Virus record (IMG/VR): IMGVR_UViG_3300032117_000008
Direction: 5' to 3' (one strand)
DNA from: an uncultured virus (IMG/VR IMGVR_UViG_3300032117_000008)
Taxonomy: Duplodnaviria; Heunggongvirae; Uroviricota; Caudoviricetes
Length of the DNA: 62,865 nucleotides
Shown here: one piece after another, positions 60 to 54,255 of the stretch
Numbering within the stretch: position 1 is the first letter of the stretch
How the letters are laid out: each line of letters starts with the position of its first letter
Notes under the pieces: generated by a model
Told to the model about the DNA's origin: nothing
The model's database searches: none
Seen by the model: the letters and a program-made list of their open reading frames with translations, nothing else
Position numbers and translations under genes: made by a program

Positions 60-1373
60 TCATCCAAAAAAATCCTCCAACGTTGATCTTTGTTCTGCTT
101 CCCAACCAATAACATCGGTTATAGACTTCAATGGTTCCAAAAACGATTTATTGAATTGCATATCACGATCTATATAATTATCAAGGTTAAATTGTTCGGG
201 TAATAGATCAGAAGTCGCGATAACTGTGTCTTGAACGGGATTAGGTATCTTCAAATATGCAAATCTAATTTTATCTCCATCAGAAAGAGGAGGTATATTC
301 GTAATATTATGCTTTTTGAGCATATTATTGAATAATAGAGCTCCCTTAACCTGAATTGGAGTTCCTTTCTTGTAGATATCAGCGGAATCTTTATACTTGT
401 TTATTCCTTTCAATCCTCTTGGAAAAGCTACATCCTGAAACGGTAAAGAAGCAAATTCATTTCTAAATTCCTCAATGAATTTTTGTAGAGAAGCTTGATC
501 CTCGTTCATTATTATACTAAGAGCTTTCTTAATATTTTCGCGGCAAGCATGTGGTGTTGAAGAACGAACAGCTTCAATACCAGACAATTTCAACTTGGGC
601 TTATCATATTGAACACCTTCAACATTCCAAGCGTTAAGAATATACATCTTCTTACCACGCCAAATACCTTTGTTGGCAATGGTTTCACGCTTCATCTGCA
701 TCTTCTGCTGATAAGCATTCATCATTCCAGCAAGTTCGTCATAACAAATATCAAGATATGGTTGAATCTTTTTTTCGCAGAATTGATCGATCAACTTAAC
801 AGCTTTAAGCTCATCGCTGCCTTCAGGAATCAGTCGTTCAAATGTAACATAGATAGAATCAGTATCAGAAGCGATAACGTAATCAACATTTTCAGTCTTA
901 CAAATCTTATTCATAAACTGATTCATCTTATTGATAATAAATTTAATTGTTAATTGACCTGACGAAGTAATAGATTCTGCATTATCAAAGTTAAACCAAC
1001 GAAAATACATATTAGACAAGGCTCCATAAAAGCTGTTGAGTTGAATTTTTTTGGCCATTTGGAGATTATTATATCTAGAAACTAATTTTTCATCTTCCTT
1101 GCTTTTGGTTTTTTCATATCTTTTTTTAGTCTCAATCATCAATTTTTTATATTTCGACCTGTCATCGAACATTTTTTGCATAAGCGCCGTTGCAAAACCA
1201 TGAGAATCATTTTTATATAAACAACCGTTTGCAGTCAAAGAATAACCTTCTATTTTTGGCGTCGTTTTATTTTTAAATATAAAAGAGTTATCATAAGATT
1301 CAGGTCGAATGTCATCTAACATTTTTTCCAGAGTATACAATTCTTCATCAGTTAAATTTTCTAAAATGTTCAT
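60..1373 (-). CDS. 43: Family B DNA polymerase, C-terminal half (gp43B)
   Basis: Motif B KKIQLNSFYG, motif C ASDTDS, KKMY, GIEAVRSSTP, and a C-terminal clamp-binding peptide LEDFFG. Confidence 0.95.
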   Translation of the reverse strand: MNILENLTDEELYTLEKMLDDIRPESYDNSFIFKNKTTPKIEGYSLTANGCLYKNDSHGFATALMQKMFDDRSKYKKLMIETKKRYEKTKSKEDEKLVSRYNNLQMAKKIQLNSFYGALSNMYFRWFNFDNAESITSSGQLTIKFIINKMNQFMNKICKTENVDYVIASDTDSIYVTFERLIPEGSDELKAVKLIDQFCEKKIQPYLDICYDELAGMMNAYQQKMQMKRETIANKGIWRGKKMYILNAWNVEGVQYDKPKLKLSGIEAVRSSTPHACRENIKKALSIIMNEDQASLQKFIEEFRNEFASLPFQDVAFPRGLKGINKYKDSADIYKKGTPIQVKGALLFNNMLKKHNITNIPPLSDGDKIRFAYLKIPNPVQDTVIATSDLLPEQFNLDNYIDRDMQFNKSFLEPLKSITDVIGWEAEQRSTLEDFFG

Positions 1374-2016
1374 TTCTCCACCTAATTGCTCTAGTTACAT
1401 TAGAATTTATTCGACCATCTTTAGCGTAATAATTCTGTTTAGATAACCAATTATTAAATTCTTCTTCGCTCATATTGATATATTTGTATTTGGTCTTTTT
1501 TCTTTGTTCAGATATTTTTTCTAACTTTTCTTTTGAACATGGTGCAGATAATCTATTTTTGGGATAATTTATTTTCATACCCGTCTTTTTTTCTCTCATT
1601 TTTTCTATACCTTTTAGTATAGTTTTTCTATCTGCACCGAAATAAGCCTTTCCAATCATATCAACTCGTTTTTTACCTTTTTTAGATTCAACGACTGCAG
1701 TTCTAGCCGATTCATATAGATAAGAATTATTGAAAATTTTTTGTCTATACGTATCACCTTTTCCATAAATCATCCAATGAAAAGCCATGGCCATTTTCCT
1801 AGTTTTTTCGTCTTCTGATCCATAACGTTTACGAAATATTTTCCATAAAAGTTTATGAGAAATGTAATGTTCTCTTAAAGTTAAAGGAACTACGAAATCA
1901 TTTGGACCATAAATTGACACGGGAAAAACATGATGATATTCGTATAATTTTCTGTCTATTTCTTTTCTATTTTTCGCTCTTCTTATAATTAAAATATATT
2001 TCTTTAAATAATTCAT
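1348..2016 (-). mobile_element. Free-standing HNH homing endonuclease inserted between the two polymerase halves
   Basis: YEYHHVFPVS...LTLREHYISHKLL HNH signature, basic C-terminal region, AT-rich, own late promoter. Confidence 0.85.
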
Positions 2017-2044
2017 AAATTTACTCCATTTAAAGAGTATTTAG
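2017..2044 (-). promoter_or_regulatory. Late promoter (CTAAATA) plus hairpin hiding the SD of the HNH gene
   Basis: CTAAATA at 2044-2038; TACTCT-ttaaat-GGAGTA stem covers GGAG. Confidence 0.6.
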
Positions 2045-3306
2045 GTCAAACCGCGTCTTTTCTTCTCTCTTTCAATCATTTCTTTTAATGTTTTTTTGTT
2101 TATCATTTTTTCGGGGCTAATATTATATTGTTGAATTAAACTTGGGTATAGAGATGTTAAATCAAAAGAAACAACCCACCTACTCAAACCAATCTTTGGT
2201 TCCTTGACGTATCCACCAACCAAACTATCAAAATTAGATTGTTTCTTGAACTGAGGAATAACAATACCTTGATCAAGTAGATAATTATGAATAATAACAT
2301 CCCAAGGACGCACAGTTGTCATTGTATCATTGTAATTTACCTTGGCGTCATATGCCAAAGCCATTACTTGTTCAAGAAACTTCATTTTATCGTCAAGACG
2401 TTCAACCAGAACGCAGTCATGAATATTATATTCAATAAACTTTTGAAAGTCGTCTCTATAGAATGTTAGGAAGTTTTTATGTTCTGAGTGATCAATTTTC
2501 TTTTCGCCCAATTCAATCTGAGCAATATAATCGAGTTTATAAGATTCCTGATTACCAAATGTAAATTTACGATACAATTGATAATAATCAAGAACAGCTA
2601 TGCCAGCGGGAGTGAAACTTTGATTTTCCTTACCACGAAATTCGACGGTCTTTTCATCAAGAATAAACCAAGGCGAAAGACGCTTTGCTTCCTTTTCATT
2701 GAACAGAACACGAATACGATTAACCAAATATGGAATGTCGAAAAATTCTATATTCCAACCAGTAACAATATCTAGGTCAAGAGACATCCAACAAGACAAA
2801 AACTTCTGAAGTAATTCGTGTTCGTCTTGACATTGAATATAGAAAGTTTTATTGTCCTTCGGAGTAAACTTACCACAGCCAAAGACAAAGTTTTTATTAT
2901 TAAATCTCACTGTTATGGCTGTGATTTCTTTGTCCGCTTTTTGAATATCAGGAAATCCTTCATCAGCGGCGCACTCGATATCAAGAATGCCAATCTTAAC
3001 CAGATTAGGATCGTAATCAATATCACCTTTGAACGTGTCGTAGATGAAAGTATAAACGAATGAATTAAGCCCGTATATTTCCATATTCGCTACATCTTCA
3101 TAACGATTAACGAAATCACGAGCATCTGAAATATCATCGAACATCATCTTCTCAACGGGTCTACCATCAAGAGTTTTATATTTACCATTACTTTTTTGAA
3201 TAAACATATAAGGTTTGTAGTTGACGACTTCTTTAACTCTCAAACCTTTATCGTAACCTTGGTAATAAATTCTATTACCACGCTGAAAAACACTAGTGTA
3301 AAACAT
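2041..3306 (-). CDS. 43: Family B DNA polymerase, N-terminal half (gp43A: exonuclease + motif A)
   Basis: ExoI LDIEC, ExoII GWNIEFFDIPY, ExoIII YNIHD, motif A SFDLTSLYPS..YNISPE; similarity ends there and a short basic tail follows. Confidence 0.95.
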   Translation of the reverse strand: MFYTSVFQRGNRIYYQGYDKGLRVKEVVNYKPYMFIQKSNGKYKTLDGRPVEKMMFDDISDARDFVNRYEDVANMEIYGLNSFVYTFIYDTFKGDIDYDPNLVKIGILDIECAADEGFPDIQKADKEITAITVRFNNKNFVFGCGKFTPKDNKTFYIQCQDEHELLQKFLSCWMSLDLDIVTGWNIEFFDIPYLVNRIRVLFNEKEAKRLSPWFILDEKTVEFRGKENQSFTPAGIAVLDYYQLYRKFTFGNQESYKLDYIAQIELGEKKIDHSEHKNFLTFYRDDFQKFIEYNIHDCVLVERLDDKMKFLEQVMALAYDAKVNYNDTMTTVRPWDVIIHNYLLDQGIVIPQFKKQSNFDSLVGGYVKEPKIGLSRWVVSFDLTSLYPSLIQQYNISPEKMINKKTLKEMIEREKKRRGLT

Positions 3307-3358
3307 CAAATCTCCTTTTGCAATCCGGCCAAAATTAGCCCACAGATGCTAATAATAT

Positions 3359-5347: not shown

Positions 5348-5916
5348 AGACCTCCGTAATATTTACCGAAGAGCCTAAAGCCATTGTTGGCGCGATTATT
5401 TAACTCTTCGTATTTTTCTTTATTAAAGAAATTAGTTTCGTGATCATAATACTGATCACAGAAATCTTCATCAAGAACAGTTGAAAATGCATAAATCATT
5501 TCATCAACAACCCATTCCCAACGCCGATGATATAAATCATCAAAATCCGATTCGTTTTCTATTGGTTCCGCTAGCGGAACGTGTGGTTTCGCTGCGGTTG
5601 AGCGAAGATTCTCCGGAACATCTTCATCATCAACAAATCCAGAACTATGTTTATTATCACGAATATTAACAAGAATGGGATGAATGATCAAAGCCATAGT
5701 ATGATCAGCATTCCAAATATCATAATCGTCGATACGTATCTTGATCTTACGTTTTCTTTTTGAATAAATTTGGTTTAAAAACTTATTAACCCAAGTTTCG
5801 GCCAACCAATCGCCTATATCGTCGCATTTCTGCGCCGACACTCCAACATATTTAAGAAGGTCCACGATCTGATAAGGACCCCAAAAATTTTTATAAGGAC
5901 CAATATTCACTTTCAT
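5338..5916 (-). CDS. Conserved phage hypothetical protein
   Basis: IKIRIDDYDIWNADHTMALII...W..VVDEMIYAF...GFRLFGKYY.GLW pattern seen in large myophages. Confidence 0.7.
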   Translation of the reverse strand: MKVNIGPYKNFWGPYQIVDLLKYVGVSAQKCDDIGDWLAETWVNKFLNQIYSKRKRKIKIRIDDYDIWNADHTMALIIHPILVNIRDNKHSSGFVDDEDVPENLRSTAAKPHVPLAEPIENESDFDDLYHRRWEWVVDEMIYAFSTVLDEDFCDQYYDHETNFFNKEKYEELNNRANNGFRLFGKYYGGLWT

Positions 5917-5930
5917 AACAAAAACCTTTC

Positions 5931-6722
5931 TTAAGGAATTATAACTTTACGATCCGGATTAACAGGAGCAATTGTTCTTATGGTCCAGAAGTCTGAACAT
6001 AGATTTGGATCGGTAATATAATCATAAGGAAAATAACAATAACCTTTATCACCCCAATCTTTGGACCAACTATTTAAAACTGTAAATTTTCTTGTATTAT
6101 CATCATAACCAACGATAAGAATAGCATGACCGCCAGCCGATCTTGAGTTAGGAGTTGGCATTGGTACAATACCCGTTCTAGCCACTTCGTCTCCTTCAAA
6201 TTCCTGAAAGATATTAGCACCAAATACAACTGGATAACCTTCATGAAGGCACATCTTTATTTCATTTTCGGTTTGTTCAACAGTCATGTATTGGCTTGCT
6301 TCATCTTGTATAGCGTCTTTATAAGATTGTTCTGTTGGTTTATCTTTAAACTTACTTTCAACATAAGGCCAATCAGTTTCAATAGGAGCGCCATATGTTC
6401 CTAATACTTTAGCACCGTCTCTTATTTCAGCACCAGCATCTTCATCAACAGTGCCTTCCATTAATCTTTCATTATAATAAACAAAGAGCCTTGATAATTC
6501 CATATCAGGTAAGCCCTGTTTAATTCTTGCAATTCTGTTTGCCATTGTTAAAGCCTGAGCAGTACAAGAACCTAATTCGCCTTGATCCAAAACTTCCGGA
6601 ATAATAGGTCTTAGATCGACTGATGAAGGTAGAGACTTATAGACAACAGGATTAACTGTTTTAAGTCTAAAGTCTCTACTGTCTGGTTTAGATTGTTTCC
6701 AACCGTAATTTCTAGTAACCAT
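5931..6722 (-). CDS. Papain-like cysteine peptidase (C1A)
   Basis: LPSSVDLR, DQGELGSCTA, GGHAILIVGYDD, NSWSKDWGDKGY catalytic motifs. Confidence 0.9.
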   Translation of the reverse strand: MVTRNYGWKQSKPDSRDFRLKTVNPVVYKSLPSSVDLRPIIPEVLDQGELGSCTAQALTMANRIARIKQGLPDMELSRLFVYYNERLMEGTVDEDAGAEIRDGAKVLGTYGAPIETDWPYVESKFKDKPTEQSYKDAIQDEASQYMTVEQTENEIKMCLHEGYPVVFGANIFQEFEGDEVARTGIVPMPTPNSRSAGGHAILIVGYDDNTRKFTVLNSWSKDWGDKGYCYFPYDYITDPNLCSDFWTIRTIAPVNPDRKVIIP

Positions 6723-6764: not shown

Positions 6765-7970
6765 TTATTTTGTAGGAACCGGAGAAGCAGGGGCCTTTGG
6801 TACGAGGTTAATCAAGCCCTCAATAATTCCCGGCGAGACAAACATAGGAAGACCGTGCTTATCCATACCGCTTGCCAATCCACGCTGAACATCAAGCTGT
6901 GCAGTGGCCTGAAGAGTTGCCATGACCGGACCAAGCTTGGCTGCTTCATAGAAGTTATTGACAGTACGCTGAACTTCACTGTCAAATTCAAAAGTATCGG
7001 CCCAACCAATAAAGTTGATAGTGATACCAAAGTTCTTGAAATATGCCCTAACGTTCTTCTCGATATCGTCCATCATTGGTACATAATCTTCGTTGGCTTT
7101 ATCGAAAGTACGACGACCAATTTCGTTACAAACCAGAGTCTGAACCTTCTTACGACCAACATCGTCCATTACACTCCAAAGGCTACGACCATAATAAACG
7201 CTCTGAAAGATAACCTGTGGATCGTTTGGATTGCCCTTTGGCTGCTGAACACCGAAGTTATAAAGAAACTTGGCTGCATCCTGCTCGGCAACACTGGCGG
7301 CAATACTAACGCCTGCAGTAATATTCAAACCTTCCTTGGACTGACAAGGAAAAGACTGATCAGTGTTTGAGCTGCCACGTTCCCTCGACTTAACCCATTC
7401 ATGAGAATAAGGAGTACGATCAACAATATACAAGCGACCCGTTGGAACATAATAATCCCATCCATAATAACCGCCTGTGTTGGCCAACTTCGCGTGAGGA
7501 ATTACGAAACGCTTTGAAGCAATCTTACGTTCGTTATAATACTCTTCACTTTCAAACTGAGCCTGACTGTCCTTATTGGCGCCGGCATCAGGAACCCAAA
7601 ACGCTGTCTGGTTGGGAAGAATTGTATACGCTTCGGTCTTATCAGTCGTATCAGCGTAAGCCCATGCTCGATCAGACTGATATGTAAACACCATAAAGGC
7701 TAGAGAGGCGCTAATCGCAGCTGTAATCAAATTCTTTGTTGGCTTGAACCAGATAGCCACCAAAACAATAATAAGAGCAATACTAAACAATGCATTCACA
7801 CCACTAAAAAACGAGAACGTGTAAACTGTCTGTAGATATGCCATATCGCTATTACCAAACTGATTGCTAGCAACTCGACCAGTTACAAGAGTGGCGATTG
7901 GAGTATAGAGATTCGTCAAGAAACTATAAAACGCCAAAACAACCAGTGAACCAAAAACTCGATTAAACAT
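6765..7970 (-). CDS. Membrane protein, SPFH/band-7-like
   Basis: N-terminal hydrophobic helices; SKEGLNITAGVSI and FGITINFIG segments resemble the SPFH domain. Confidence 0.55.
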   Translation of the reverse strand: MFNRVFGSLVVLAFYSFLTNLYTPIATLVTGRVASNQFGNSDMAYLQTVYTFSFFSGVNALFSIALIIVLVAIWFKPTKNLITAAISASLAFMVFTYQSDRAWAYADTTDKTEAYTILPNQTAFWVPDAGANKDSQAQFESEEYYNERKIASKRFVIPHAKLANTGGYYGWDYYVPTGRLYIVDRTPYSHEWVKSRERGSSNTDQSFPCQSKEGLNITAGVSIAASVAEQDAAKFLYNFGVQQPKGNPNDPQVIFQSVYYGRSLWSVMDDVGRKKVQTLVCNEIGRRTFDKANEDYVPMMDDIEKNVRAYFKNFGITINFIGWADTFEFDSEVQRTVNNFYEAAKLGPVMATLQATAQLDVQRGLASGMDKHGLPMFVSPGIIEGLINLVPKAPASPVPTK

Positions 7971-24543: not shown

Positions 24544-25668
24544 ATGGCTCGTCGTCAACCACTTATCGCTAATCGCAAACAGAAAGCTCCTCGCGTTTCT
24601 CGTTCGGAGCAGTACATCGTCAACTATAAGTATCTCGGCGACGAGCCCCTTTTCGATAAGGTTCCGTCAATTTCGGAATATTCTCAGGCTTTGACTTGGT
24701 ACAATTATATGTGTACCAACGACGAAGCTCGCGGTTATCTTAAAGATTACCTTAAGAGCAAGTCGCGAACCGAGGAATTGAAGAAGCTTAATCGCGTATC
24801 TGATACTTGGGTTTCAACGACCGCTTGTTGGGTCGCGCGTATGATCACTCGTGGTTCTAAGATGCCAGAAACAGCGGGAACTTTCCTTGAAACTAAGATC
24901 AAGGAGATGCTTTCTCGCGCGAAGGTTGAAGAACCTGTTGTTGAAACCGAAGTCAAGAAGCCTACGGTTAAAGAGCGTATTCAGGACAAAGCTTCTGACA
25001 TTATCGGCGATATCGAGGAAATGATTGATTCTGACGTTAAGTTTTCGCTTTACGATTGGATGAAGTCGAAATATATTCCCGCTGTTTACGCTTCTATGAT
25101 TGTAGAGAAGTATACACCATGGCTCGACGAGTTGCTTGAGGCTCTCGAAGGCAACGATAATCAACTTAAAGAGGCTTATCGTTATCTTTCTAAGAAACAA
25201 CTCAAGGAACGAGTTTTGTTCTTTAACTCGTTGATCGAGGACGCCGAACGTTATGGCGCTGTGACTAAAAAGACGCGTAAACCACGTAAGCCTCGCGCTG
25301 TTTCGGTCGAGAAGAAGCTCAAGAACCTTAAGTATCAAAAGGAAGATAAAGAGTTCAAGATCGCTTCGGTCAATCCAGAAAAGATTATTGGCGCTCAAGA
25401 ACTTTGGACGTTCAACACCAAATATAAGACGTTGACCGTACTAAGAGCTCTTGATCGCGGTGGTCTACAAATCAAGGGTACGAGCGTTTTGGGGTACGAT
25501 GAAAACAACTCCGTAACCAAACGTACTGGTCGCAAGCCAGAAGAATACATTAAGAAGGTTTTGGAAGGTGGTAAGATCGTATTGCGTAAGCTTATGGATG
25601 AGTTGAAGAAAGAAGCTTCTTTGGCTTATCGTATAAACGAAAATACTATTCTGCTAAAAATCACTTGA
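24544..25668 (+). CDS. Conserved T4-like hypothetical protein
   Basis: ALTWYNY, SVNPEKIIGAQELWTFNTK.K.L, RINENTILL. Confidence 0.75.
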   Translation: MARRQPLIANRKQKAPRVSRSEQYIVNYKYLGDEPLFDKVPSISEYSQALTWYNYMCTNDEARGYLKDYLKSKSRTEELKKLNRVSDTWVSTTACWVARMITRGSKMPETAGTFLETKIKEMLSRAKVEEPVVETEVKKPTVKERIQDKASDIIGDIEEMIDSDVKFSLYDWMKSKYIPAVYASMIVEKYTPWLDELLEALEGNDNQLKEAYRYLSKKQLKERVLFFNSLIEDAERYGAVTKKTRKPRKPRAVSVEKKLKNLKYQKEDKEFKIASVNPEKIIGAQELWTFNTKYKTLTVLRALDRGGLQIKGTSVLGYDENNSVTKRTGRKPEEYIKKVLEGGKIVLRKLMDELKKEASLAYRINENTILLKIT

Positions 25669-25698
25669 CCTTTTCAGCAGAATAGGGTAATATAAATA
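25665..25698 (+). promoter_or_regulatory. Overlapping sigma70 and late promoters of the RNA operon
   Basis: TTGACC-N17-TAATAT plus TATAAATA at 25691-25698. Confidence 0.7.
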
Positions 25699-25699
25699 T

Positions 25700-25976
25700 G
25701 TTGCTTGGTCGTTGAGGCGTAAAGAATAGATGCTTTGGACGTGGGTGCGAATCCCACCTGGTCCACCACAGATACACCGGGACCGACTCGAAAGAGACTC
25801 CTTAGAAGATGAGGGATTAGGTGTATCTTTGATGGGCCAGAATAGGTTCGACAAGGTATGTCAAGGTTACGAGTAGACTAAGTAAAAACGTTAAATGCAA
25901 ACGATAACAATGCATCTGGTTTCGCCCTAGCGGCGTAACATGAGTCCGGCAGGAACTTGGAAACAGAATCCTGCCA
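25700..25976 (+). ncRNA. ssrA: Circularly permuted two-piece tmRNA
   Basis: T-arm and CTGGTCC-ACCA end at 25768; GGGCCAG-AATAGGTTCGAC starts at 25834; G3:U70 pair; tag ORF 25897-25938 = ANDNNASGFALAA*; terminal GGCAGGA...TCCTGCC stem. Confidence 0.93.
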
Positions 25977-25985
25977 TCTTTTCAT

Positions 25986-26062
25986 GGCTCCTTAGCTCAG
26001 CTGGACAGAGCACCGGATTTCTACTCCGGGCGTCGAGGGTTCGAATCCTTCAGGGGCCGCCA
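25986..26062 (+). tRNA. tRNA-Arg(UCU)
   Basis: Complete cloverleaf, anticodon TCT at 26020-26022, A20, encoded CCA. Confidence 0.92.
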
Positions 26063-26066
26063 TTTT

Positions 26067-26159
26067 GCTTCTGTAGTGTAACGGTCAGCACCCGGTCCTT
26101 ATAAGTCCGTATCGCCAGATTAGCGAGGAGTCTTGGTTCGAATCCAAGCAGAAGCACCA
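26067..26159 (+). tRNA. tRNA with UAU anticodon (Ile) and a long variable arm
   Basis: GCTTCTG/CAGAAGC acceptor, loop CT-TAT-AA, V-arm TCGC-cagatta-GCGA, TTCGAAT T-loop, ACCA. Confidence 0.85.
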
Positions 26160-26180
26160 ATTTTTAAGGGTATGATATTA

Positions 26181-26408
26181 ATGGAAGCATTAGCGAATAG
26201 TAATTCTTTTATAGAAGATATAGAAAAGTTATGTCGAACTAAAAACATAGAATACATAGACGCTGTTGTGCTTTGGTGTGAAAAAAACAATCTCGAAGTT
26301 GAAACAGCAGCGTATTGGATACGTAAAGATCCAACGATGAAATCAAAAATTCAAGCTGAAGCGGAAGTCCTTAACATACTTAAAAGATCGGCACGCCTTC
26401 CTATTTGA
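26181..26408 (+). CDS. 33: Late transcription co-activator gp33
   Basis: F..IE......YIDAVV..CE.N.LE.E...K.KIQ.EA..LN.L pattern; upstream of 59 and 32. Confidence 0.85.
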   Translation: MEALANSNSFIEDIEKLCRTKNIEYIDAVVLWCEKNNLEVETAAYWIRKDPTMKSKIQAEAEVLNILKRSARLPI

Positions 26409-26919: not shown

Positions 26920-27124
26920 AACTGTAGTTGATGTTGTCCTTGATGATATCGCCGAAGAAGATTTGATTGATTATCTCGAGGATAAAGGATATGTGATCAA
27001 AGAAGGCGAATCCGTAAGCGAAATAGAAAATCTATATTACGATTGGCTTTCTCTTCCACCAGATGCTTTTAATAAAGTTCTCAAGAAATTTTTCAGCGAA
27101 CAATTAGACAAGATTGTTGTATGA
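26897..27124 (+). CDS. Acidic hypothetical protein
   Basis: Overlaps both neighbours; GAGG SD. Confidence 0.6.
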   Translation: MSVKAYVETVVDVVLDDIAEEDLIDYLEDKGYVIKEGESVSEIENLYYDWLSLPPDAFNKVLKKFFSEQLDKIVV

Positions 27125-27702
27125 CCACAGCAATAGAAGCGTATAAAGAATATCTGGCTCTTAAAAATCATTTTACCAAAACATCCTATAATTATTTTAA
27201 GTACAATGGTAAGGCTAGAGTAAATCAATCAACGTTTGAAGCAAGAAAAGATAAACTGTTTTTTCAAAAGCTAGCGAAACATCCGGACGTAAAGAACTTT
27301 TTGGTCGCCAATTTTTCAATTAACGAGAAAACCTGGATCAAAGAATTAGCATATTCAGAAGAAGCTGAGAATAATTATAAGGACTGGCTGAAACGACAGC
27401 AGTCCTTATCTTACGTTTTCAAACAAGATTTGTCAAAATTAGACGACAATTTCAACGATAACTTTATTTGTCGTGATAATGAACATCCGATTTTATTAAA
27501 GAAATATCTAGGAAAAGAAATTTCCCTAGAAACTTTATGTTTGCTTTTAGATATCACTGGCGCTAAAAAGCATTGGGATACTAAAATGCAATACGATTTG
27601 GTTTGGGATAATCTACGAACCAGAGTGGAGAAATATACTCCTTTTATTAATGTTGATAAAGAAAAGATCAAAAAATTGATAGTTGACTTTTTCATTGAAT
27701 AG
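27121..27702 (+). CDS. 59: Helicase loader gp59
   Basis: YLALKNHF..YNYFKYNGK, RKDK.FF.KL, ISLETL, KYTPF. Confidence 0.9.
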   Translation: MTTAIEAYKEYLALKNHFTKTSYNYFKYNGKARVNQSTFEARKDKLFFQKLAKHPDVKNFLVANFSINEKTWIKELAYSEEAENNYKDWLKRQQSLSYVFKQDLSKLDDNFNDNFICRDNEHPILLKKYLGKEISLETLCLLLDITGAKKHWDTKMQYDLVWDNLRTRVEKYTPFINVDKEKIKKLIVDFFIE

Positions 27703-27782
27703 GTTATACTAAATAATGTTGGACGCTATACGTGGTCCAATGCAAAACATACATTGCTATACAAAACATACGGAGAATATAT

Positions 27783-28685
27783 ATGGTAGATTTTAAAAAA
27801 CTTAAGTCGATGTCTGGTAAGAAGTCTCTCGAAGCACTTAACGCAGAACTTTCAAAGATTTCTGGTGGACAAGAAGGTAAAAAGGGCGATGATCGTTTGT
27901 GGTCGCCAACAGTAGATAAGGCTGGTAACGGTTATGCCGTTATTCGTTTCCTTCCTCCTCCCGCTAATGAAGATGTTCCTTTTGTTCGTCTTTTCGATCA
28001 CGGATTTCAAGGACCGGGCGGTTGGTACATCGAAAACTCACTAACCACAATTGGTAAGGATGATCCAGTTTCTGAGTATAATACCAAGCTTTGGAACAGC
28101 GGTATTGAAGCTAATAAGGAAATTGCTCGTAAACAGAAGCGTCGTTTACATTTCATTTCAAATATTTACGTCGTAACAGATTCAGGTAATCCCGCCAATG
28201 AAGGCAAGGTTTTCTTGTTCAAGTATGGCAAGAAGATTTTTGATAAGCTCAACGAAGCTATGAATCCTCAGTTTGAAGATGAAGATGCAGTTAACCCATT
28301 TGATCTTTGGGCTGGCGCAAACTTCAAGCTTAAGATTCGTCAGGTTGAAGGCTATCGTAATTATGATAAGTCAGAATTTGACAAGGTTAAGCCATTGCTT
28401 GATGATGACGAAGAACTTGAAAAGGTTTGGAAGTCAGAACATTCGCTACAAGAATTTCTTGATCACAAAAATTTCAAGAGCTATGATGAACTCAAGGCTA
28501 AATTGTCGAAGGTTCTCAATGAAGCCGCGTCGACTGTTGCTCGCGCGGAAGAGGAAGATATTCCTTGGGCACGTACAGAAGCTCCACCAAAGCAGAAGTC
28601 GGCTCCGGAGCCAAAGATCCAGGCTATGGAAGACGATGACGATGAATCTTTGGAGTTTTTTAATAAGCTTGCAAAAGGTAATTGA
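27783..28685 (+). CDS. 32: Single-stranded DNA-binding protein gp32
   Basis: DKAGNGYAVIRFLP, WYIENSLTT, YGKKIFDK, GANFKLK, acidic tail. Confidence 0.97.
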   Translation: MVDFKKLKSMSGKKSLEALNAELSKISGGQEGKKGDDRLWSPTVDKAGNGYAVIRFLPPPANEDVPFVRLFDHGFQGPGGWYIENSLTTIGKDDPVSEYNTKLWNSGIEANKEIARKQKRRLHFISNIYVVTDSGNPANEGKVFLFKYGKKIFDKLNEAMNPQFEDEDAVNPFDLWAGANFKLKIRQVEGYRNYDKSEFDKVKPLLDDDEELEKVWKSEHSLQEFLDHKNFKSYDELKAKLSKVLNEAASTVARAEEEDIPWARTEAPPKQKSAPEPKIQAMEDDDDESLEFFNKLAKGN

Positions 28686-46915: not shown

Positions 46916-49900
46916 ATGGCATCGAATACATCCCTTCTTGATACTAATTTGAATACAAGTCCTTATTTTGATGACTATGATCCAACAAAACAATATTATA
47001 AAGTATTGTTTAAGCCTGGTACGGCAGTTCAAGTAAGAGAATTAAATCAGCTTCAATCAATTTTACAGAACCAAATAACCTCGTTCGGTCAAAATATATT
47101 CAAAGAAGGTTCGGTAATTAAAGGTTGTACTTTCACGTTTGATAACAATTACAACTACGTCAAATTGAATGATACGTATGCGAATGGTACTTCTTTAACG
47201 GTTTCGGATTTGGTTGGATATAGCGTCACAAATCCCAACGGGTTGACTGCTACAGTTATTAACTCTTTACCAGGATTGTATTCTAATAATCCTGATCTAA
47301 ACACATTATATATTAAATATTTGAACACAGGAACTTACAGTAACGGCGCTCCTCAAACGCAATTCGCAAATAGCGAACTTCTAACTTTTATTTCTTCTGC
47401 TAATTTAGTTGTTGCAACTGTAGTGTCAGCAAACGTTGCTAATGTATCAGGAAAAGGTTACGCGTTTACTACAACTGAAGGTATTATTTTTAAAAAGGGG
47501 TATTTCATTTATGTTGATCCTCAAACCGCTGTAATCGACAAATACTCAAATCAGCCCGATGGTATTTCTGTTGGATTCGAGGCTACTGAAGAATTAATAA
47601 CTGCAAGTAATGATACAAGCCTTTATGATAACGCTGCTGGTGCCCCAAATTATTCTGCGCCGGGTGCTGATCGCCTTAAATTAATTCCTACACTTGTTAC
47701 AATACCAACAAACACAGCGAATACTACAACTTTCTTTTCTTTGGTTGATTTCAAACAAGGCGCGCCGATAACAATAAGACAGGATACCCAATTTAATTCT
47801 ATCGCTATAGAAGAAGCACGTAGATCGTACGAAACTAATGGAAACTTCGTAGTTAATCCTTTTATTGTTTCATCACAAAGTTTGGCAAATACATCTGATC
47901 CGGATTACGCCACTCATTATAATGCTTTGGTTAGCGCAGGAATAGGCTACGTTAACGGTTACAGAGTTCAGTTTATTAATAGTAATGCATTCAAAGCGAG
48001 AAGAGGAACAGATTATGCCAACGTTTCTCAACAAAATGTTTCTTTGAATTTTGGTTATTATGTGTTATTAGACGAATTGTCTGGCGAATTCGGCGATTCA
48101 AATAAAATCATTCAAGTTCAATTACACAGCGTTCCAAAAACTTCTGTAACTAATAGAACTTTCCTAGGTACCAGTTTTTCTCCAACAACGCAAATAGGAA
48201 CAGCGTACATAAGAGGATTTTCTTATAATAGCGGATCTCCAGGAGCAAATACAGCTCAGTATAGATTATATCTATTTGATATTTCGATGAATCCTGGTTC
48301 TAATTTTAATAATGTAAAAAGCGTAATTTATTATGATAGTTCTTTAAAAGGCGTTGCCGATATTGTTCTAGATTATAATATTTCTTCTAATAATTATATC
48401 GCTTCTATCAAATCACCATATTTGAATAGTATGATCTATCCATTTGGTCAAAATGCATTATCATCAAACGGATTTAATAATACAGAATTTGATTATAGAA
48501 AAATATCAAATACAAATTTTTCTAGTAGCGCAACTAATTCTATCGCGACTGTCGGGATAACAACTCCTCCTTCTGGTTCCGATAGTTTCCTTTATTTGGG
48601 AACTCTATCTTCTTCTCAAATGAATGATTTTATTGTTGTTCCAACGTCAAACGGTTATTCAACTAATAAAACTGGAACGGTTACAGTTTCAAGCTCAAGT
48701 AACGTTGTTACAGGTTCCGGCACTTCGTTCTTAACAGATTATGCCGTTGGCGATTTTATTCTTACAAACACATCAGATGTTAGAACTATAACTTCAATAT
48801 CTAATAATGTTTATTTGACTGTAGATAATACTTTTTCTTCTAGCGTAGGAAGTTTGACTCACCAGAAAGCGTTTATTACAGGAAACCCAATACCATTTTC
48901 AACAAGACCAAATAGATCAATGAATATTTCCGCAAATACGTTGACTATTTCTCTTGGCGAGGGTGCGAACGCAGCTTTTAACATTCAAGTAGCTTCTTCT
49001 ATTGCTAGATCAGGCGCTACGTCGATACAAAAAATTATTAACAAAAACGTTTTTGTTAAAATCGATTGTTCTAACAACATCAACAAAAACGTAGGTCCAT
49101 GGGAATTAGGTATACCTGATGTTTTCAATGTTGACGGTGTATATATTGATACGAGCGGGAATAAAACTTATACAAATACTTCAACAAATTACGCAAGTTA
49201 TTTCAGTTTAGATAACGGCCAAAGAGATGCTTACTATGACTTAGCAACTTTGAATGTTGTAACAAATTCTCCTGCAGACCGTATTAATGCAAATACAACG
49301 ATTTTAGTTCAGTTGTCGGCGTTTACTCATCAATCGGGTTCTGGATATTTTACTTGTAATTCTTATCCAATTGACGACGTAAATACATCAAACGTTAACG
49401 CGATAACAACTGCTGAAATACCAACTTATTCAAGTTCTGGTGGTTATTATTTCGATTTAAGAAATTGTATTGATTTTAGACCTGTTTCTTCAAACACTGC
49501 AAACGTGGCTACAAGCATAGCAACAGCGACTGTTAATCCTTCATCAACATTAAGTTTTAATGGAACTCCTATATTACCAGATCCTGATTCTATTTTTATT
49601 ACAGACCTTGCGTATTATCTTTCAAGAACAGATAGACTAGCTATCGATACTTCTGGTAATATTGTTATCACCGAAGGATTGCCCGCTGTTGCAAATCCTC
49701 CAGCGCCGTCCGAACAAAATGGTACGATGACTCTTTCATTGTTATCAATCCCGCCTTATCCTTCTTTGACAACCAACGAAGCCAAAGAGTACAACAGATA
49801 TGATTTGGCTATTCAATCAGCGACAAGTCAAAATAGAAGATATACTATGAAGGACATTAAGTCCTTGGATACAAGAATTACAAATCTTGAATACTATACT

Positions 49901-50572
49901 TCATTATCTCTTCTAGAACAATCAGCGGCTGCATTACAAATAAAAACCACAACGACAGGTCAGACAAGATTTCAGAACGGTATCTTTGTTGATCCGTTCA
50001 CTGGTTTTGATCTTTCTAATACACTAGATCCTAAGTATTATATGGCTATTGATCCAATGACAAACACATTAAGACCTGCGTTTGTCCAAATGCGTTCTGA
50101 TTTTGCCTTTGATTCTTCATTAAGTTCTGGTGTTCAGCAACATGGTGAACTTATTATGTTGCCGCATACAAGCAATAATGTTTATATTAAACAACAATAT
50201 GCTTCTAAGTATAGAAATTGTATTGAAGGTAACATTTATACTTGGATAGGAACAATAACTTTAACTCCTTCTGGTTCTATTTCGCCAGATACAACAACAA
50301 GTCCAAGCGTTGTTAATAATCTTGATCTAGCACAAAACTGGCTTAATCTTCAAAATGCTTGGGGAACTCAGTGGGGTAATTGGCAAACACTTTCAACAAC
50401 TTCATCAAATACATTGATTACAGCTTCTTCTACAGTAAGTCAGAGAATTGGTGATCCATTGACACCGCCTCCTTCATCTGATGATGGTGGTACACCACCT
50501 CCTGTATATCAATGGTCTGATAGTGGAGATGGTCTTGGTATAGTAGGAACTTCTCCTTATGGTGATAGTTAA
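46916..50572 (+). CDS. DUF4815/VrlC-like virion protein, part 1
   Basis: SPYFDDYD..K.YYKVLFKPG.AVQ.RELNQLQ, APGADRLK, RRYTMKDI, LEYYTSLSLLE, NGIFVDPF. Confidence 0.75.
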   Translation: MASNTSLLDTNLNTSPYFDDYDPTKQYYKVLFKPGTAVQVRELNQLQSILQNQITSFGQNIFKEGSVIKGCTFTFDNNYNYVKLNDTYANGTSLTVSDLVGYSVTNPNGLTATVINSLPGLYSNNPDLNTLYIKYLNTGTYSNGAPQTQFANSELLTFISSANLVVATVVSANVANVSGKGYAFTTTEGIIFKKGYFIYVDPQTAVIDKYSNQPDGISVGFEATEELITASNDTSLYDNAAGAPNYSAPGADRLKLIPTLVTIPTNTANTTTFFSLVDFKQGAPITIRQDTQFNSIAIEEARRSYETNGNFVVNPFIVSSQSLANTSDPDYATHYNALVSAGIGYVNGYRVQFINSNAFKARRGTDYANVSQQNVSLNFGYYVLLDELSGEFGDSNKIIQVQLHSVPKTSVTNRTFLGTSFSPTTQIGTAYIRGFSYNSGSPGANTAQYRLYLFDISMNPGSNFNNVKSVIYYDSSLKGVADIVLDYNISSNNYIASIKSPYLNSMIYPFGQNALSSNGFNNTEFDYRKISNTNFSSSATNSIATVGITTPPSGSDSFLYLGTLSSSQMNDFIVVPTSNGYSTNKTGTVTVSSSSNVVTGSGTSFLTDYAVGDFILTNTSDVRTITSISNNVYLTVDNTFSSSVGSLTHQKAFITGNPIPFSTRPNRSMNISANTLTISLGEGANAAFNIQVASSIARSGATSIQKIINKNVFVKIDCSNNINKNVGPWELGIPDVFNVDGVYIDTSGNKTYTNTSTNYASYFSLDNGQRDAYYDLATLNVVTNSPADRINANTTILVQLSAFTHQSGSGYFTCNSYPIDDVNTSNVNAITTAEIPTYSSSGGYYFDLRNCIDFRPVSSNTANVATSIATATVNPSSTLSFNGTPILPDPDSIFITDLAYYLSRTDRLAIDTSGNIVITEGLPAVANPPAPSEQNGTMTLSLLSIPPYPSLTTNEAKEYNRYDLAIQSATSQNRRYTMKDIKSLDTRITNLEYYTSLSLLEQSAAALQIKTTTTGQTRFQNGIFVDPFTGFDLSNTLDPKYYMAIDPMTNTLRPAFVQMRSDFAFDSSLSSGVQQHGELIMLPHTSNNVYIKQQYASKYRNCIEGNIYTWIGTITLTPSGSISPDTTTSPSVVNNLDLAQNWLNLQNAWGTQWGNWQTLSTTSSNTLITASSTVSQRIGDPLTPPPSSDDGGTPPPVYQWSDSGDGLGIVGTSPYGDS

Positions 50573-50610
50573 AGATAGTAGAATAAATAATCAATTTAAA
50601 GGTAAAATAA

Positions 50611-51759
50611 ATGGCAGGAACGCTAAACACAACTACTACACAAACATTAGCGGTAACTTCTTCGGTCCAGCAACAAATAGGTACACAGTTAACAAATAGT
50701 GTATCAAATCAATTGTTGAATTTGGGAAATTTTGTTACTAATGTTAGTATATTACCATTCATACCTTCAGCAACAATCCAATTTAATGCGGTTGGTATGA
50801 AACCTAATACTCGTCTATATGCTTATTTTAATAATGTTCCTGTTTCAGCTTGGTGTGCCCCAATATTGCCGGGGTATGACCCTTCCACTCTAGCTGGATC
50901 ACAATTATGTACACCTTTTGGAACTCCTTTGTATAGTGATTCTAATGGTAATGTTTCTGGTATATTTCGTATTCCAGCTAATACATTTCAATCACAACAA
51001 ATAACTTTTGAACTAAATGATATTTCTGATCTTTCACAAGGTTCTAGTGCCATAACAACACAAGCAGATGGTGTTTATTATGGTAGTACATTGTCTGTTG
51101 CTAGTGGGGCTAGTTTATTAAATACAAGACAAACTGTATTATCATCAACACAAGTTACACAACAACAAACAGTTCAAGGATTGGCAGTTGCAACAGCCGT
51201 AACACAGCAATACATTCCAGACCCAACACCACCAACAAGTGGTGGCGGTGATAACTGTGGGTGTGGATCAATTATTTGTACAAAATTGTATGAACTTGGT
51301 TTGATGGACGAAGACACATATAAAGCAGATCAAGAATTTGGTGAATATTTAAGATCATATGATCCTGATACATATTGGGGATATATAAAATGGGCTTCAA
51401 TAGTCGTTGACTGGATGTCTGGAAATACTCCAGATGTAATGTTCTGGATTAAAGATTTAGAAAAGCGTCGCGCCAAAGAATTGGAACTTACTCTTAAAAT
51501 AACACACAGAATTGCCACTCCTTGGGCTCAACATATGCAATTTTTAATGGGTAAAAGAGAAAAAGACAACAAAGTTGGAAAATTAATTATGAATGTTGGT
51601 AAACCTATTAGTAAAATTATATATAAATTGCCTTTCTTTAATAAAAAATCACCAAGCAAAGGAACAAAATATTTTATGCTTGGGTTATTTTTTGTTCTTT
51701 ATTCGATAAGCAAAGTATTTGGTGATAATTTTGGTTTTGAAAAATCAATAAATATTTAA
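50611..51759 (+). CDS. DUF4815-like virion protein, part 2, with an appended IICT domain and TM tail
   Basis: GMKPNTRLYAYF, SDSNG.VSG.F.IP, then GGG..IICTKLYELG..GY..WA. Confidence 0.65.
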   Translation: MAGTLNTTTTQTLAVTSSVQQQIGTQLTNSVSNQLLNLGNFVTNVSILPFIPSATIQFNAVGMKPNTRLYAYFNNVPVSAWCAPILPGYDPSTLAGSQLCTPFGTPLYSDSNGNVSGIFRIPANTFQSQQITFELNDISDLSQGSSAITTQADGVYYGSTLSVASGASLLNTRQTVLSSTQVTQQQTVQGLAVATAVTQQYIPDPTPPTSGGGDNCGCGSIICTKLYELGLMDEDTYKADQEFGEYLRSYDPDTYWGYIKWASIVVDWMSGNTPDVMFWIKDLEKRRAKELELTLKITHRIATPWAQHMQFLMGKREKDNKVGKLIMNVGKPISKIIYKLPFFNKKSPSKGTKYFMLGLFFVLYSISKVFGDNFGFEKSINI

Positions 51760-51783
51760 AATTAAAAGAGGTATAAGAAAAAT

Positions 51784-54255
51784 ATGAATCCAATTGGTCA
51801 AACATTTTACGTTAGTGAACCTTCAACCGGAGTTCCCGGTGTTTATATAACTCAAATTGACGTTTTCTTTCAGTCTGTAAGCCCTACTTATGGAATTGAA
51901 TTACAATTAAGAACAACTTTAAATGGCGTTCCAACACAAGAACGTTTGCCTTTTGCTAGTATAATTTTACTTCCAACAGATGTAAATCCTCCTGTTGCGT
52001 CTTCTGATGCTTCGGTTGCAACTTCGTTTGTTTTTGATACTCCTGTTTTTGTTCAGTCTGGTCTATCATATGCTATTGTCTTATTACCTCTTGGTGGTAA
52101 TCCGGACTATAATATATGGACTGCTGAAATTGGCGGCACTGATTCTGTTACAAATTCACCAATTTATACAAATAACGATACCGGTGATTTGTTTCTTTCA
52201 TCAAATGATAAAGATTGGACTCCAATAATTACCGAAGATATGAAATTTACAATATATATTGCTAATTTTACTTCTCTTTCGGGAACAGCTGTTTTTAGAA
52301 CACCCGATGAAGATTATGCAGAATTATATAATATAAACGGTTCTTTTGCCCTTGGAGAACCTCTTTATCCAACGAATACAGCGATGAATATAGCTGTTCT
52401 TAATGTAACAGGCGTTTTAGGTTCGTTCAATAACGGAGATCAAGTTTATCAATCAAACGGTTCGTCAAATACTGCTACAGGCGTTGTGTACAGCGCAAAT
52501 TCTTCTGTTATTAAACTTTCCAACACCACTGGCGGGTTTTCAAGCACATATTATACGACGTTATATAATTCTGCTTCAGTTTCTAATGCAGTAGTTACAG
52601 TGGTTTCACAAAACGCATCAATAACCACTTCTTCAAACACTTTCTCGGTTCCAGATAGTTCTGTATTTTCTAATGGAGATTTTATCTATATTTCTACGAA
52701 CACAGGATCTAAAACTAGATTATTTAAAGTTTCGGGTATACCAAATTCAACAACCGTTGCTTTTTCTAATGTGTTTGTTTCAAGTCTTGCTACTTCCGAT
52801 TTTACAGACACGAATTGTATTTACGGTAAAGTATTATACAACGGTACTTTACACGGTGGATTGGGATCTTTGAAAGTTTTCCCAGATTTCACAAGAATAA
52901 TTCTTGATAACGTTTCAAGTACAACATCTAATAATTTTAATGCTGCGATAGGTAATAAAATTGTGGGTATTTTCTCCGGAGCCAGTGCAACAGTTCATAA
53001 TGTAATTAATGTCCCATATAATCAAATATCTCCAAATATCACAAATATATCCCCGGCAAATACCGGTATTTCTTGGCAATTTACTGGCGTTCAAAACAAT
53101 CCTTCATTTACTCCCGACGCTTTTGGTATTAATATTAATGAAGGTCTTTCGAATGAACAATATGACTTTGAAAGAGTTGTTCTTTCAAGAAGTAATGAAT
53201 TGTCCGCAATGCCTGTTGGAAGAACTGGTGAAAGAACTGTTAAGATATCAGCATCTTTCAATTCTTCGAATAATAAAATCAGTCCTGTTATTGACACATT
53301 AAGTAAAGTTTCTAACTTCTCATTGAACCTTTGTAGCCCAAGTTACGATTTACAAGGTTATTATTTGAATGTGTCTAATTCTACTGGAACATTTGCTAAT
53401 GGTAATATTGTAACACAAAATGGTGCAGTTGCTACAGTTAGATTTGCGAATAGTTCATTTATCAGAATAACTGATGTAACTCAAGGTTCATATTTTCAAG
53501 CTAATTCGACACCATTGATTGATACAATTAGCGGCGCAAACGCTGTTATTACGACAGCTGAATTTTATAGTGAATTACATAATAACGGATTATTTTCCGC
53601 TTCGCGTTATATTTCTAAAACAGTTTCGCTTGCTCAAACTTCAGAAGATATTGTTGTTTACATTGGCGCTTGGAGACCAGCGCCGTCAAATATAAGAATG
53701 TACGTAAGAGCTAAAAACAATCAAGATTCAAGAGATTTTAATAATGTAGTTTATTCTAGATTAACTGAAACTTCGTCGCCAAGTTTAATAAGTAGTTCAG
53801 GAAATCCTAATGATTTGGTAGAATTGACATATGGATTCCCACAAAGTATTAATTTATATACAAACGGAGTTGTTTGTAACACTTCTTCTAATGTAGTTAA
53901 TTTATTCACAACTTCCGGATTGACTTCAGGTCAGATAGTTTACCTTTCGGATTCAGCGCAATCTAAGTTTAACGTGAGAGTTATTTCTTCAATTGTCAAC
54001 AGCAGCGCAATTACACTGACAAATAACACTTCATTCAATTCAACTAATTCCGCTTTCGGCACTATTCCTAGCTTACAATCTGTTAGTGGTATTTTCTTAA
54101 ACGATCAAAACAATAATATTGCTAGATACGTAACGATTGATGATTTAGTATTTGATGGTTTTGATCAATTCTCTGTTAAAATCGTACCCGTTTCAAATAC
54201 AACCGCTCTTGTTCCTCATGTTACGGACCTAAGAGTAATAGCGATGCAAGTGTAA
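51784..54255 (+). CDS. DUF4815-like virion protein, part 3
   Basis: NPIGQTF, YITQIDVFF, LFLSSN..WT....DMKF, SPVID, YISKTV.L, P.V.DLRVIA. Confidence 0.7.
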   Translation: MNPIGQTFYVSEPSTGVPGVYITQIDVFFQSVSPTYGIELQLRTTLNGVPTQERLPFASIILLPTDVNPPVASSDASVATSFVFDTPVFVQSGLSYAIVLLPLGGNPDYNIWTAEIGGTDSVTNSPIYTNNDTGDLFLSSNDKDWTPIITEDMKFTIYIANFTSLSGTAVFRTPDEDYAELYNINGSFALGEPLYPTNTAMNIAVLNVTGVLGSFNNGDQVYQSNGSSNTATGVVYSANSSVIKLSNTTGGFSSTYYTTLYNSASVSNAVVTVVSQNASITTSSNTFSVPDSSVFSNGDFIYISTNTGSKTRLFKVSGIPNSTTVAFSNVFVSSLATSDFTDTNCIYGKVLYNGTLHGGLGSLKVFPDFTRIILDNVSSTTSNNFNAAIGNKIVGIFSGASATVHNVINVPYNQISPNITNISPANTGISWQFTGVQNNPSFTPDAFGININEGLSNEQYDFERVVLSRSNELSAMPVGRTGERTVKISASFNSSNNKISPVIDTLSKVSNFSLNLCSPSYDLQGYYLNVSNSTGTFANGNIVTQNGAVATVRFANSSFIRITDVTQGSYFQANSTPLIDTISGANAVITTAEFYSELHNNGLFSASRYISKTVSLAQTSEDIVVYIGAWRPAPSNIRMYVRAKNNQDSRDFNNVVYSRLTETSSPSLISSSGNPNDLVELTYGFPQSINLYTNGVVCNTSSNVVNLFTTSGLTSGQIVYLSDSAQSKFNVRVISSIVNSSAITLTNNTSFNSTNSAFGTIPSLQSVSGIFLNDQNNNIARYVTIDDLVFDGFDQFSVKIVPVSNTTALVPHVTDLRVIAMQV

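Follow-up and report, generated by a model that had tools for sequence, protein, structure and literature searches.

The stretch of DNA analysed here (the window, 62,865 nucleotides from an uncultured virus) carries a phage-encoded gene of the permuted tmRNA family at positions 25700-25977. The gene is alpha-derived, yet it falls outside the canonical alphaproteobacterial fold, as pseudoknot 1 (PK1) is missing. We consider it probable that the product is a working two-piece tmRNA, minimised and descended from an alphaproteobacterial form, which would rescue ribosomes and feed the host's ordinary proteases. ARAGORN and Rfam agreed on the gene. The RF04321 model (tmRNA_permuted) matched over its full length (model positions 1-213) with 95.9 bits against a cut-off of 47 (E 2.4e-17), RF01849 (alpha_tmRNA) gave 79.8 bits against a cut-off of 50 (E 5.2e-20), and ARAGORN called a permuted tmRNA with the tag ANDNNASGFALAA, its padded end at 26029 running into the neighbouring tRNA-Arg gene. 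A sequence-only reading of this DNA had proposed an alpha-type permuted tmRNA and named these two scans as the check; both were positive.

Base-by-base inspection bore out the layout described in that reading (Table 1). The T-arm and the acceptor 3' strand with its CCA end (25758-25768) lie upstream of the acceptor 5' strand (25834-25840), and the 65-nt intervening segment between them has the expected closing stem. All seven acceptor pairs form, including the G3:U70 pair reported as intact, and the alanine identity set is complete (G1:C72, G2:C71, G3:U70, A73); positions 4 to 6 of this acceptor are C4:G69, C5:G68 and A6:U67. The tag frame reads ANDNNASGFALAA, as both that reading and ARAGORN had it. 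The two pieces are predicted to pair through the acceptor stem and through H2 helices of 10 bp and 8 bp. The fold of the precursor was better than that of 200/200 shuffles (z -4.05); the T-arm hairpin is absent from this minimum-energy fold, and that helix comes from the covariance model and covariation. The intervening segment folds with a z of -2.4 and holds no ORF, just one 3-codon ATG frame; the spacer of the near-identical contig L008 has only 16- and 15-codon frames. A 66-codon antisense frame at 25654-25854 was judged incidental. At the 3' hairpin, the terminator scan called no terminator.

Table 1. Features of the tmRNA gene and its surroundings (positions in the window)
Feature	Position	Strand	Basis or detail
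Sigma70-like promoter, possible early promoter	25665..25693	+	-35 at 25665-25670, -10 at 25688-25693
Late promoter motif TATAAATA, T4-type, directly 5' of the RNA	25691..25698	+	
Acceptor piece, about 69 nt, predicted 5' end	25700..25768	+	Rfam, base-by-base check
H2 strands of acceptor piece	25701-25710 and 25730-25737	+	
T-arm	25741-25757	+	
Block replaced in contig L008	25742..25842	+	Alignment
Acceptor 3' strand	25758-25764	+	
ACCA	25765-25768	+	
Intervening segment, 65 nt, predicted to be excised	25769..25833	+	
9-bp stem closing the intervening segment	25770-25778/25820-25828	+	
Coding piece, about 144 nt, with D-loop, without pseudoknot 1	25834..25977	+	Rfam, base-by-base check
Acceptor 5' strand	25834-25840	+	
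H2 strands of coding piece	25852-25859 and 25876-25885	+	
Linker before resume codon, 11 nt	25886-25896	+	
Tag frame ANDNNASGFALAA-stop	25897..25938	+	ARAGORN, base-by-base check
3' hairpin with alpha-type GGAAACAGAA loop motif, then short U run	25948..25975	+	Rfam; fold z -2.7
tRNA-Arg(UCU), probably co-transcribed	25986..26062	+	ARAGORN, Rfam
tRNA with anticodon UAU (called Ile), long variable arm	26067..26159	+	ARAGORN, Rfam
gp33 late-transcription coactivator, probable start at the ATG after the tRNA	26172..26408	+	
gp59	27121-27702	+	
gp32	27732-28685	+	

As judged from the alignments, the window clade is without pseudoknot 1. Model positions 134-149 are deleted from the window gene in the Rfam alignment, and 44 nt lie between the D-loop motif and the resume codon (42-45 in 23/23 clade genes), compared with 62 nt in the Methylophilales phage Melnitz and 60-65 nt in 127/127 matched loci from a set of 130 alphaproteobacterial loci, mostly Rhizobiaceae. 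When the class was sampled evenly, none of 391 alphaproteobacterial genomes matched the short form and 235 matched the long form (233/389 when two unpublished genomes are left out), a few of these matches being chance-like; a match had to contain AGGATCGAC and an ANDN tag, which leaves 156 of the 391 genomes uninformative and misses low-GC lineages. Among 80 matched viral loci, 11 had the short form. No pseudoknot was detected after the tag either, where the 47 nt past the stop codon hold only a 7-bp hairpin; the detector used has low sensitivity, as it found such a structure in only 5 of 25 Rhizobiaceae segments. Tagging in E. coli requires either PK1 or a stable hairpin that takes over its position (PMC3968760, in part), which counts against a working RNA here. 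In the window, 11 nt separate the end of the distal H2 helix (25701-25710 with 25876-25885) from the resume codon, which is also the length of the linker after PK1 in E. coli. Because a stable hairpin can replace PK1 in E. coli, the H2 end may by analogy stand in for it; this is the only candidate substitute here. We found no PK1-less alpha-type tmRNA in the open literature searched, subscription papers lying outside the search.

The loss of PK1 could also point to a decoy, an RNA that takes up its amino acid and SmpB but is poor at tagging, and that would in this way inhibit trans-translation in the host as the TLD-only RNA of phage DS6A does. RNAs of the DS6A type do inhibit tmRNA (PMC4131195 and PMC11915505, each in part). 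That type is without a tag frame, whereas the frame in the window is intact and conserved, and the gene is not a member. Moreover, the tag frame, the ALAA end, the stop codon and the resume context, all needless for a pure decoy, are kept across the clade, and we regard this explanation as very improbable.

Conservation was assessed in 26 related viral loci found through the 374-aa gene directly upstream of the tmRNA, a gene with no assigned function. ARAGORN called a tmRNA in 19 of them, Rfam (with 13 of the 26 loci scanned) added L009 and L021, and the structural pattern gave 23/26; L025-L027 had no tmRNA within the examined flanks. Three of the loci (L002-L004) have the same sequence as the window (100% identity) and are perhaps not independent. 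With the gene as query, BLASTN in 50,697 phage records returned short tag or T-arm matches only, none covering more than 80% of the query. A wider viral scan, in which acceptor positions 4-6 were left free, matched at least 120 loci. Among the matches listed, the permuted tRNA-like domain was present in 97/120 viral loci, U70 stood opposite G3 in 97/97 of these genes, and 290 of the 291 cells at acceptor pairs 4-6 held a pair. Before the resume codon, U stands at -5 and A at -4, the same bases at the same positions as in E. coli tmRNA, where the frame signal is U85/A86 before the resume codon (PMC2481249, in part), and the linker is 11 nt in both. The putative function is thus well supported by the presence of the gene in 23 of 26 related loci and by compensatory changes in its pairs. 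The pattern appears to be that of a selected, working tmRNA, and the earlier claim that the RNA is functional is very probably right.

The tmRNA is absent from 3/5 cultivated relatives and 3/26 loci, and is therefore dispensable. One relative with no permuted tmRNA match, Ochrobactrum phage vB_OspM_OC (L031), carries near gp33 an ArfA-like ribosome-rescue gene (7317-7514; Pfam 27.4 bits against a cut-off of 25.5), a hint that selection acts on rescue itself. No smpB turned up on five related contigs, all partial, and host SmpB is therefore assumed.

The source is a T4-like phage. Window genes around the tmRNA include gp43 (DNA polymerase), gp33, gp59 and gp32 as well as baseplate, tail-tube and head-closure genes, and the tmRNA is followed in order by tRNA-Arg(UCU), the tRNA with anticodon UAU, gp33, gp59 and gp32. 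In 16 large ORFs, AGA accounts for 136 of 230 Arg codons and ATA for 235 of 711 Ile codons. The tRNA-UAU has a stem-forming long arm and A73, and its body is nearly that of the tRNA-Ile(TAT) of Stenotrophomonas phage DLP_6; long-arm versions also occur in L007 and L009. A long variable arm together with A73 is reminiscent of Leu or Tyr identity, and the amino acid on this tRNA may be Ile, going by the anticodon call, or follow the Leu/Tyr-like arm and A73. Directly upstream of the tmRNA lies TATAAATA, which we take to be the T4 late-promoter consensus (gp55 late promoter); ATAAATA is found upstream of 22/23 related tmRNA genes and in Melnitz. The sigma70-like site overlaps this motif and matches 9/12 consensus positions (1 site found versus 2.3 expected by chance), which is within chance and makes it weak by itself; there is a similar -35 in L007, L008, L009 and Melnitz.

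This setting also bears on the suggestion that the gene is a non-functional relic acquired from a host chromosome, such as the remnant of an attachment site. tmRNA genes are indeed common integration sites. No integrase was found among the 79 window ORFs scanned, however, the best bacterial BLAST match was 32 nt (among the 120 bacterial loci listed), and the gene is complete, with compensatory changes and a conserved late-promoter motif. The covariation already goes most of the way to refuting a relic, and we give this explanation almost no credence.

Assignment of a host through gp43 and gp32 failed, as the best matches, Melnitz and marine cyanophages, are 50-60% identical in these proteins (best match of gp32, Melnitz at 53.7%). 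The alpha-type gene likewise leaves the host unfixed, since Melnitz infects OM43. The window gp43 (60-3309, minus strand) is split into ORFs 2041-3309 and 60-1373 with a homing endonuclease gene (1348-2016) between them, and Rfam gave no intron at the gathering threshold in this region. Elsewhere in the window, the PHROG profile phrog_358 (2056 positions) is spread over three consecutive ORFs (46916-54255, plus strand).

Comparison with L008 revealed a replaced block of 101 nt that comprises the T-arm, both acceptor strands, the intervening segment and the start of the D-loop. Between 25185 and 26899, 29 of the 30 substitutions and 54 gap columns fall inside this block (P about 1e-31 for the clustering; alignment counts within the spacer are approximate), and the single substitution outside it is at 26031. 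Five of 12 T-stem and acceptor pairs are changed on both sides and none is broken, while the promoter, H2 and the tag are unchanged. The clade as a whole shows T-arm, acceptor and spacer types in varied combinations. The evidence for the swap is one assembled contig, since the 7385-base sequences of L008, L324 and L326 are one and the same. Apparently, the whole tRNA-like core was exchanged between phages as one block. Because the permutation places the acceptor strands and the T-arm side by side, one double crossover could swap the core unbroken, with its pairs intact, and L008 would be best read in this way. In L007, a free-standing GIY-YIG-like homing endonuclease gene (5410-6051, minus strand) stands right after the tag in place of the usual 3' hairpin region. 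Such an endonuclease is a possible driver of the block swap; its identity with the endonuclease in the window polymerase gene was rejected, the two being unrelated. A different phage (L073, 50-166, minus strand) has the same 65-nt spacer, about 80% identical, with a canonical acceptor and another T-arm.

Exchange of this block could instead reflect counter-defence, in which the phage RNA replaces a host tmRNA under attack by a defence nuclease or toxin and the T-arm/acceptor block is shuffled by diversifying selection to escape. Among the matches listed, the 97 viral genes have 14 acceptor types and 41 T-arms, as against one acceptor in 38/41 alphaproteobacterial pattern matches, but the viral sample may mix many hosts and its acceptor diversity is therefore confounded. 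Within the clade there are two acceptors and 7 T-arms. In the literature, phage tRNAs counter tRNA-cleaving defences (PMC11555353, in part), engagement of tmRNA is predicted for CoCoNuT systems (PMC11090510, in part), and Cas12a3 engages the T-arm, acceptor and CCA but tolerates stem changes (PMC12851939, in part); no tmRNA-specific defence was found in the literature consulted. Neutral recombination or homing would yield the same block. Nor is the C4:G69 acceptor of the window confined to phages, as it is present in bacterial seed entries. We consider counter-defence unlikely. We dropped the notion of a unique C4:G69 acceptor, because 13 of the 97 viral genes carry it (among the matches listed); a paired acceptor of this type was found in 84/119 targeted matches. 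The C4 pattern matched 11 of 401 alphaproteobacterial genomes, and of 10 matches inspected, none was a tmRNA.

The sequence-only reading had further suggested that the tag could differ from the host tag in how it routes proteins to ClpXP. The last four residues of the tag, ALAA, are the conserved ClpX/ClpA signal (PMC3985003 and PMC3968760, each in part). A relaxed tag pattern matched at least 120 bacterial loci, nearly all of them Rhizobiaceae and kin among the 80 titles listed. All 120 of the bacterial matches listed read ANDNNA[K/Q/E]GYALAA, with ANDNNAKGYALAA in 108, ANDNNAQGYALAA in 11 and ANDNNAEGYALAA in 1, and the window tag differs from the commonest Rhizobiaceae tag among them at two positions (K/S and Y/F). 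The exact tag ANDNNASGFALAA was found neither in 401 sampled alphaproteobacterial genomes nor among the at least 120 bacterial loci listed; it is therefore the phage's own, but in its variable middle only. Close relatives have at least 7 different tags, with the variation confined to the middle, and among the 55 distinct tags of 193 viral loci, 45 have LAA as their last residues.

Delivery of rescued proteins to a different adaptor or protease would be in keeping with a tag found in none of these bacteria, and adaptor binding depends on upstream tag residues (PMC3985003, in part). On the other side stand the canonical ALAA end, the close likeness to the Rhizobiaceae tag and a middle that drifts among relatives, as a low-constraint segment would. 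Special ClpXP routing by ANDNNASGFALAA is thus not supported, the tag looks ordinary, and we hold rerouting to be quite unlikely. ARAGORN reported tags of 24-31 residues in other viral permuted tmRNAs (L212, L222, L227, L239, L247, L295 and others). Two Neorhizobium loci, L107 and L124, contain three and two copies, respectively, of the stretch that codes for the tag, spaced by about 390 bases; these may be fragments displaced when islands inserted in tandem.

For the preferred reading, a minimised tmRNA in ordinary rescue, we propose the following course. The tmRNA and the two tRNAs would form a small translation-support cassette of a lytic T4-like lineage, probably transcribed late in infection and perhaps early too. 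Host RNase P would cut at 25834 and 3' trimming would expose the encoded CCA at 25768, the spacer being discarded, and the two pieces would be held together by the acceptor stem and the two H2 helices. Host AlaRS would charge the RNA through G3:U70, and with host SmpB and EF-Tu it would free ribosomes stalled on broken mRNA and append (A)ANDNNASGFALAA, the tagged protein then being degraded by ClpXP/ClpAP, as is usual in the host. The phage would gain extra rescue capacity while host RNA is destroyed, with no new protease route. The lineage would have deleted PK1 cleanly and retained the 11-nt linker before the resume codon.

Phage two-piece tmRNAs with their own tag are already published and common. 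Buchholz et al. 2022 (PMC9004378), who described the Melnitz ssrA (MZ577097.1), count 53 of them, including those of Pelagibacter phages HTVC008M and Mosig and of phiCbK-like Caulobacter phages (ARAGORN calls, not all verified). Nawrocki et al. 2025 list 79 phage tmRNAs (PMC11915505, in part), and tmRNAs of Bradyrhizobium phages have been given the same putative rationale (PMC12656738, in part). In the open literature, with subscription papers outside the search, we found no experimental test of a phage two-piece tmRNA. We confirmed the Melnitz ssrA (RF04321, 113.4 bits) and its gene order. Like the window, Melnitz is a T4-like phage with an alpha-type permuted gene and an ANDN...ALAA tag, and its ssrA lies upstream of gp33, gp59 and gp32 with ATAAATA upstream. 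In contrast to the window, its 62-nt segment has room for PK1 (44 nt in the window), its spacer is 142 nt (65 nt), its acceptor is GGGGGCG (C4:G69 type), and a glutamine riboswitch lies downstream (two tRNAs and no riboswitch). With the Caulobacter-type two-piece tmRNA (RF01849, RF04321; PMC11915505 and PMC3985003, each in part) the window gene shares the permuted order, acceptor identity, D-loop motif, H2 pairing, tag type and 3' hairpin motif. It differs in having no PK1 and no detected PK2, where two pseudoknots are typical (PMC3985003, in part), in being about 20 nt shorter before the resume codon, and in acceptor pairs 4 to 6.

Thus, the PK1-less form of this clade and its block-swapped core are a modest variant of published phage tmRNAs. 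The clade nevertheless offers a natural PK1 deletion and an allele pair differing only in the tRNA-like core, and bears on which tmRNA parts are needed for trans-translation and on a capacity versus a counter-defence role. A bolder proposal, to which we attach little weight, is that a natural pseudoknot-free tmRNA (about 213 mature nt) still tags, and that the permuted layout is a cassette exchanging T-arm/acceptor modules under pressure from host systems that attack the tRNA-like domain. If this were true, the window and L008, as two alleles of a single phage population, would make the questions of the minimal tmRNA and of why phages carry tmRNA directly testable.

RF04321 also scored above its cut-off in 2/5 cultivated relatives, Stenotrophomonas phage DLP_6 (KU682439.2) and Rhizobium phage RHph_I1_18 (MN988519.1). 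Both are T4-like, with the upstream gene family in common and a permuted tmRNA, but in both the tmRNA lies inside a large tRNA cluster and not before gp33. DLP_6 differs further in a beta-type score and in keeping the hairpin before the resume site. Its permuted tmRNA (L328, 1501-1722; best subtype beta) is unannotated in the Stenotrophomonas maltophilia phage record.
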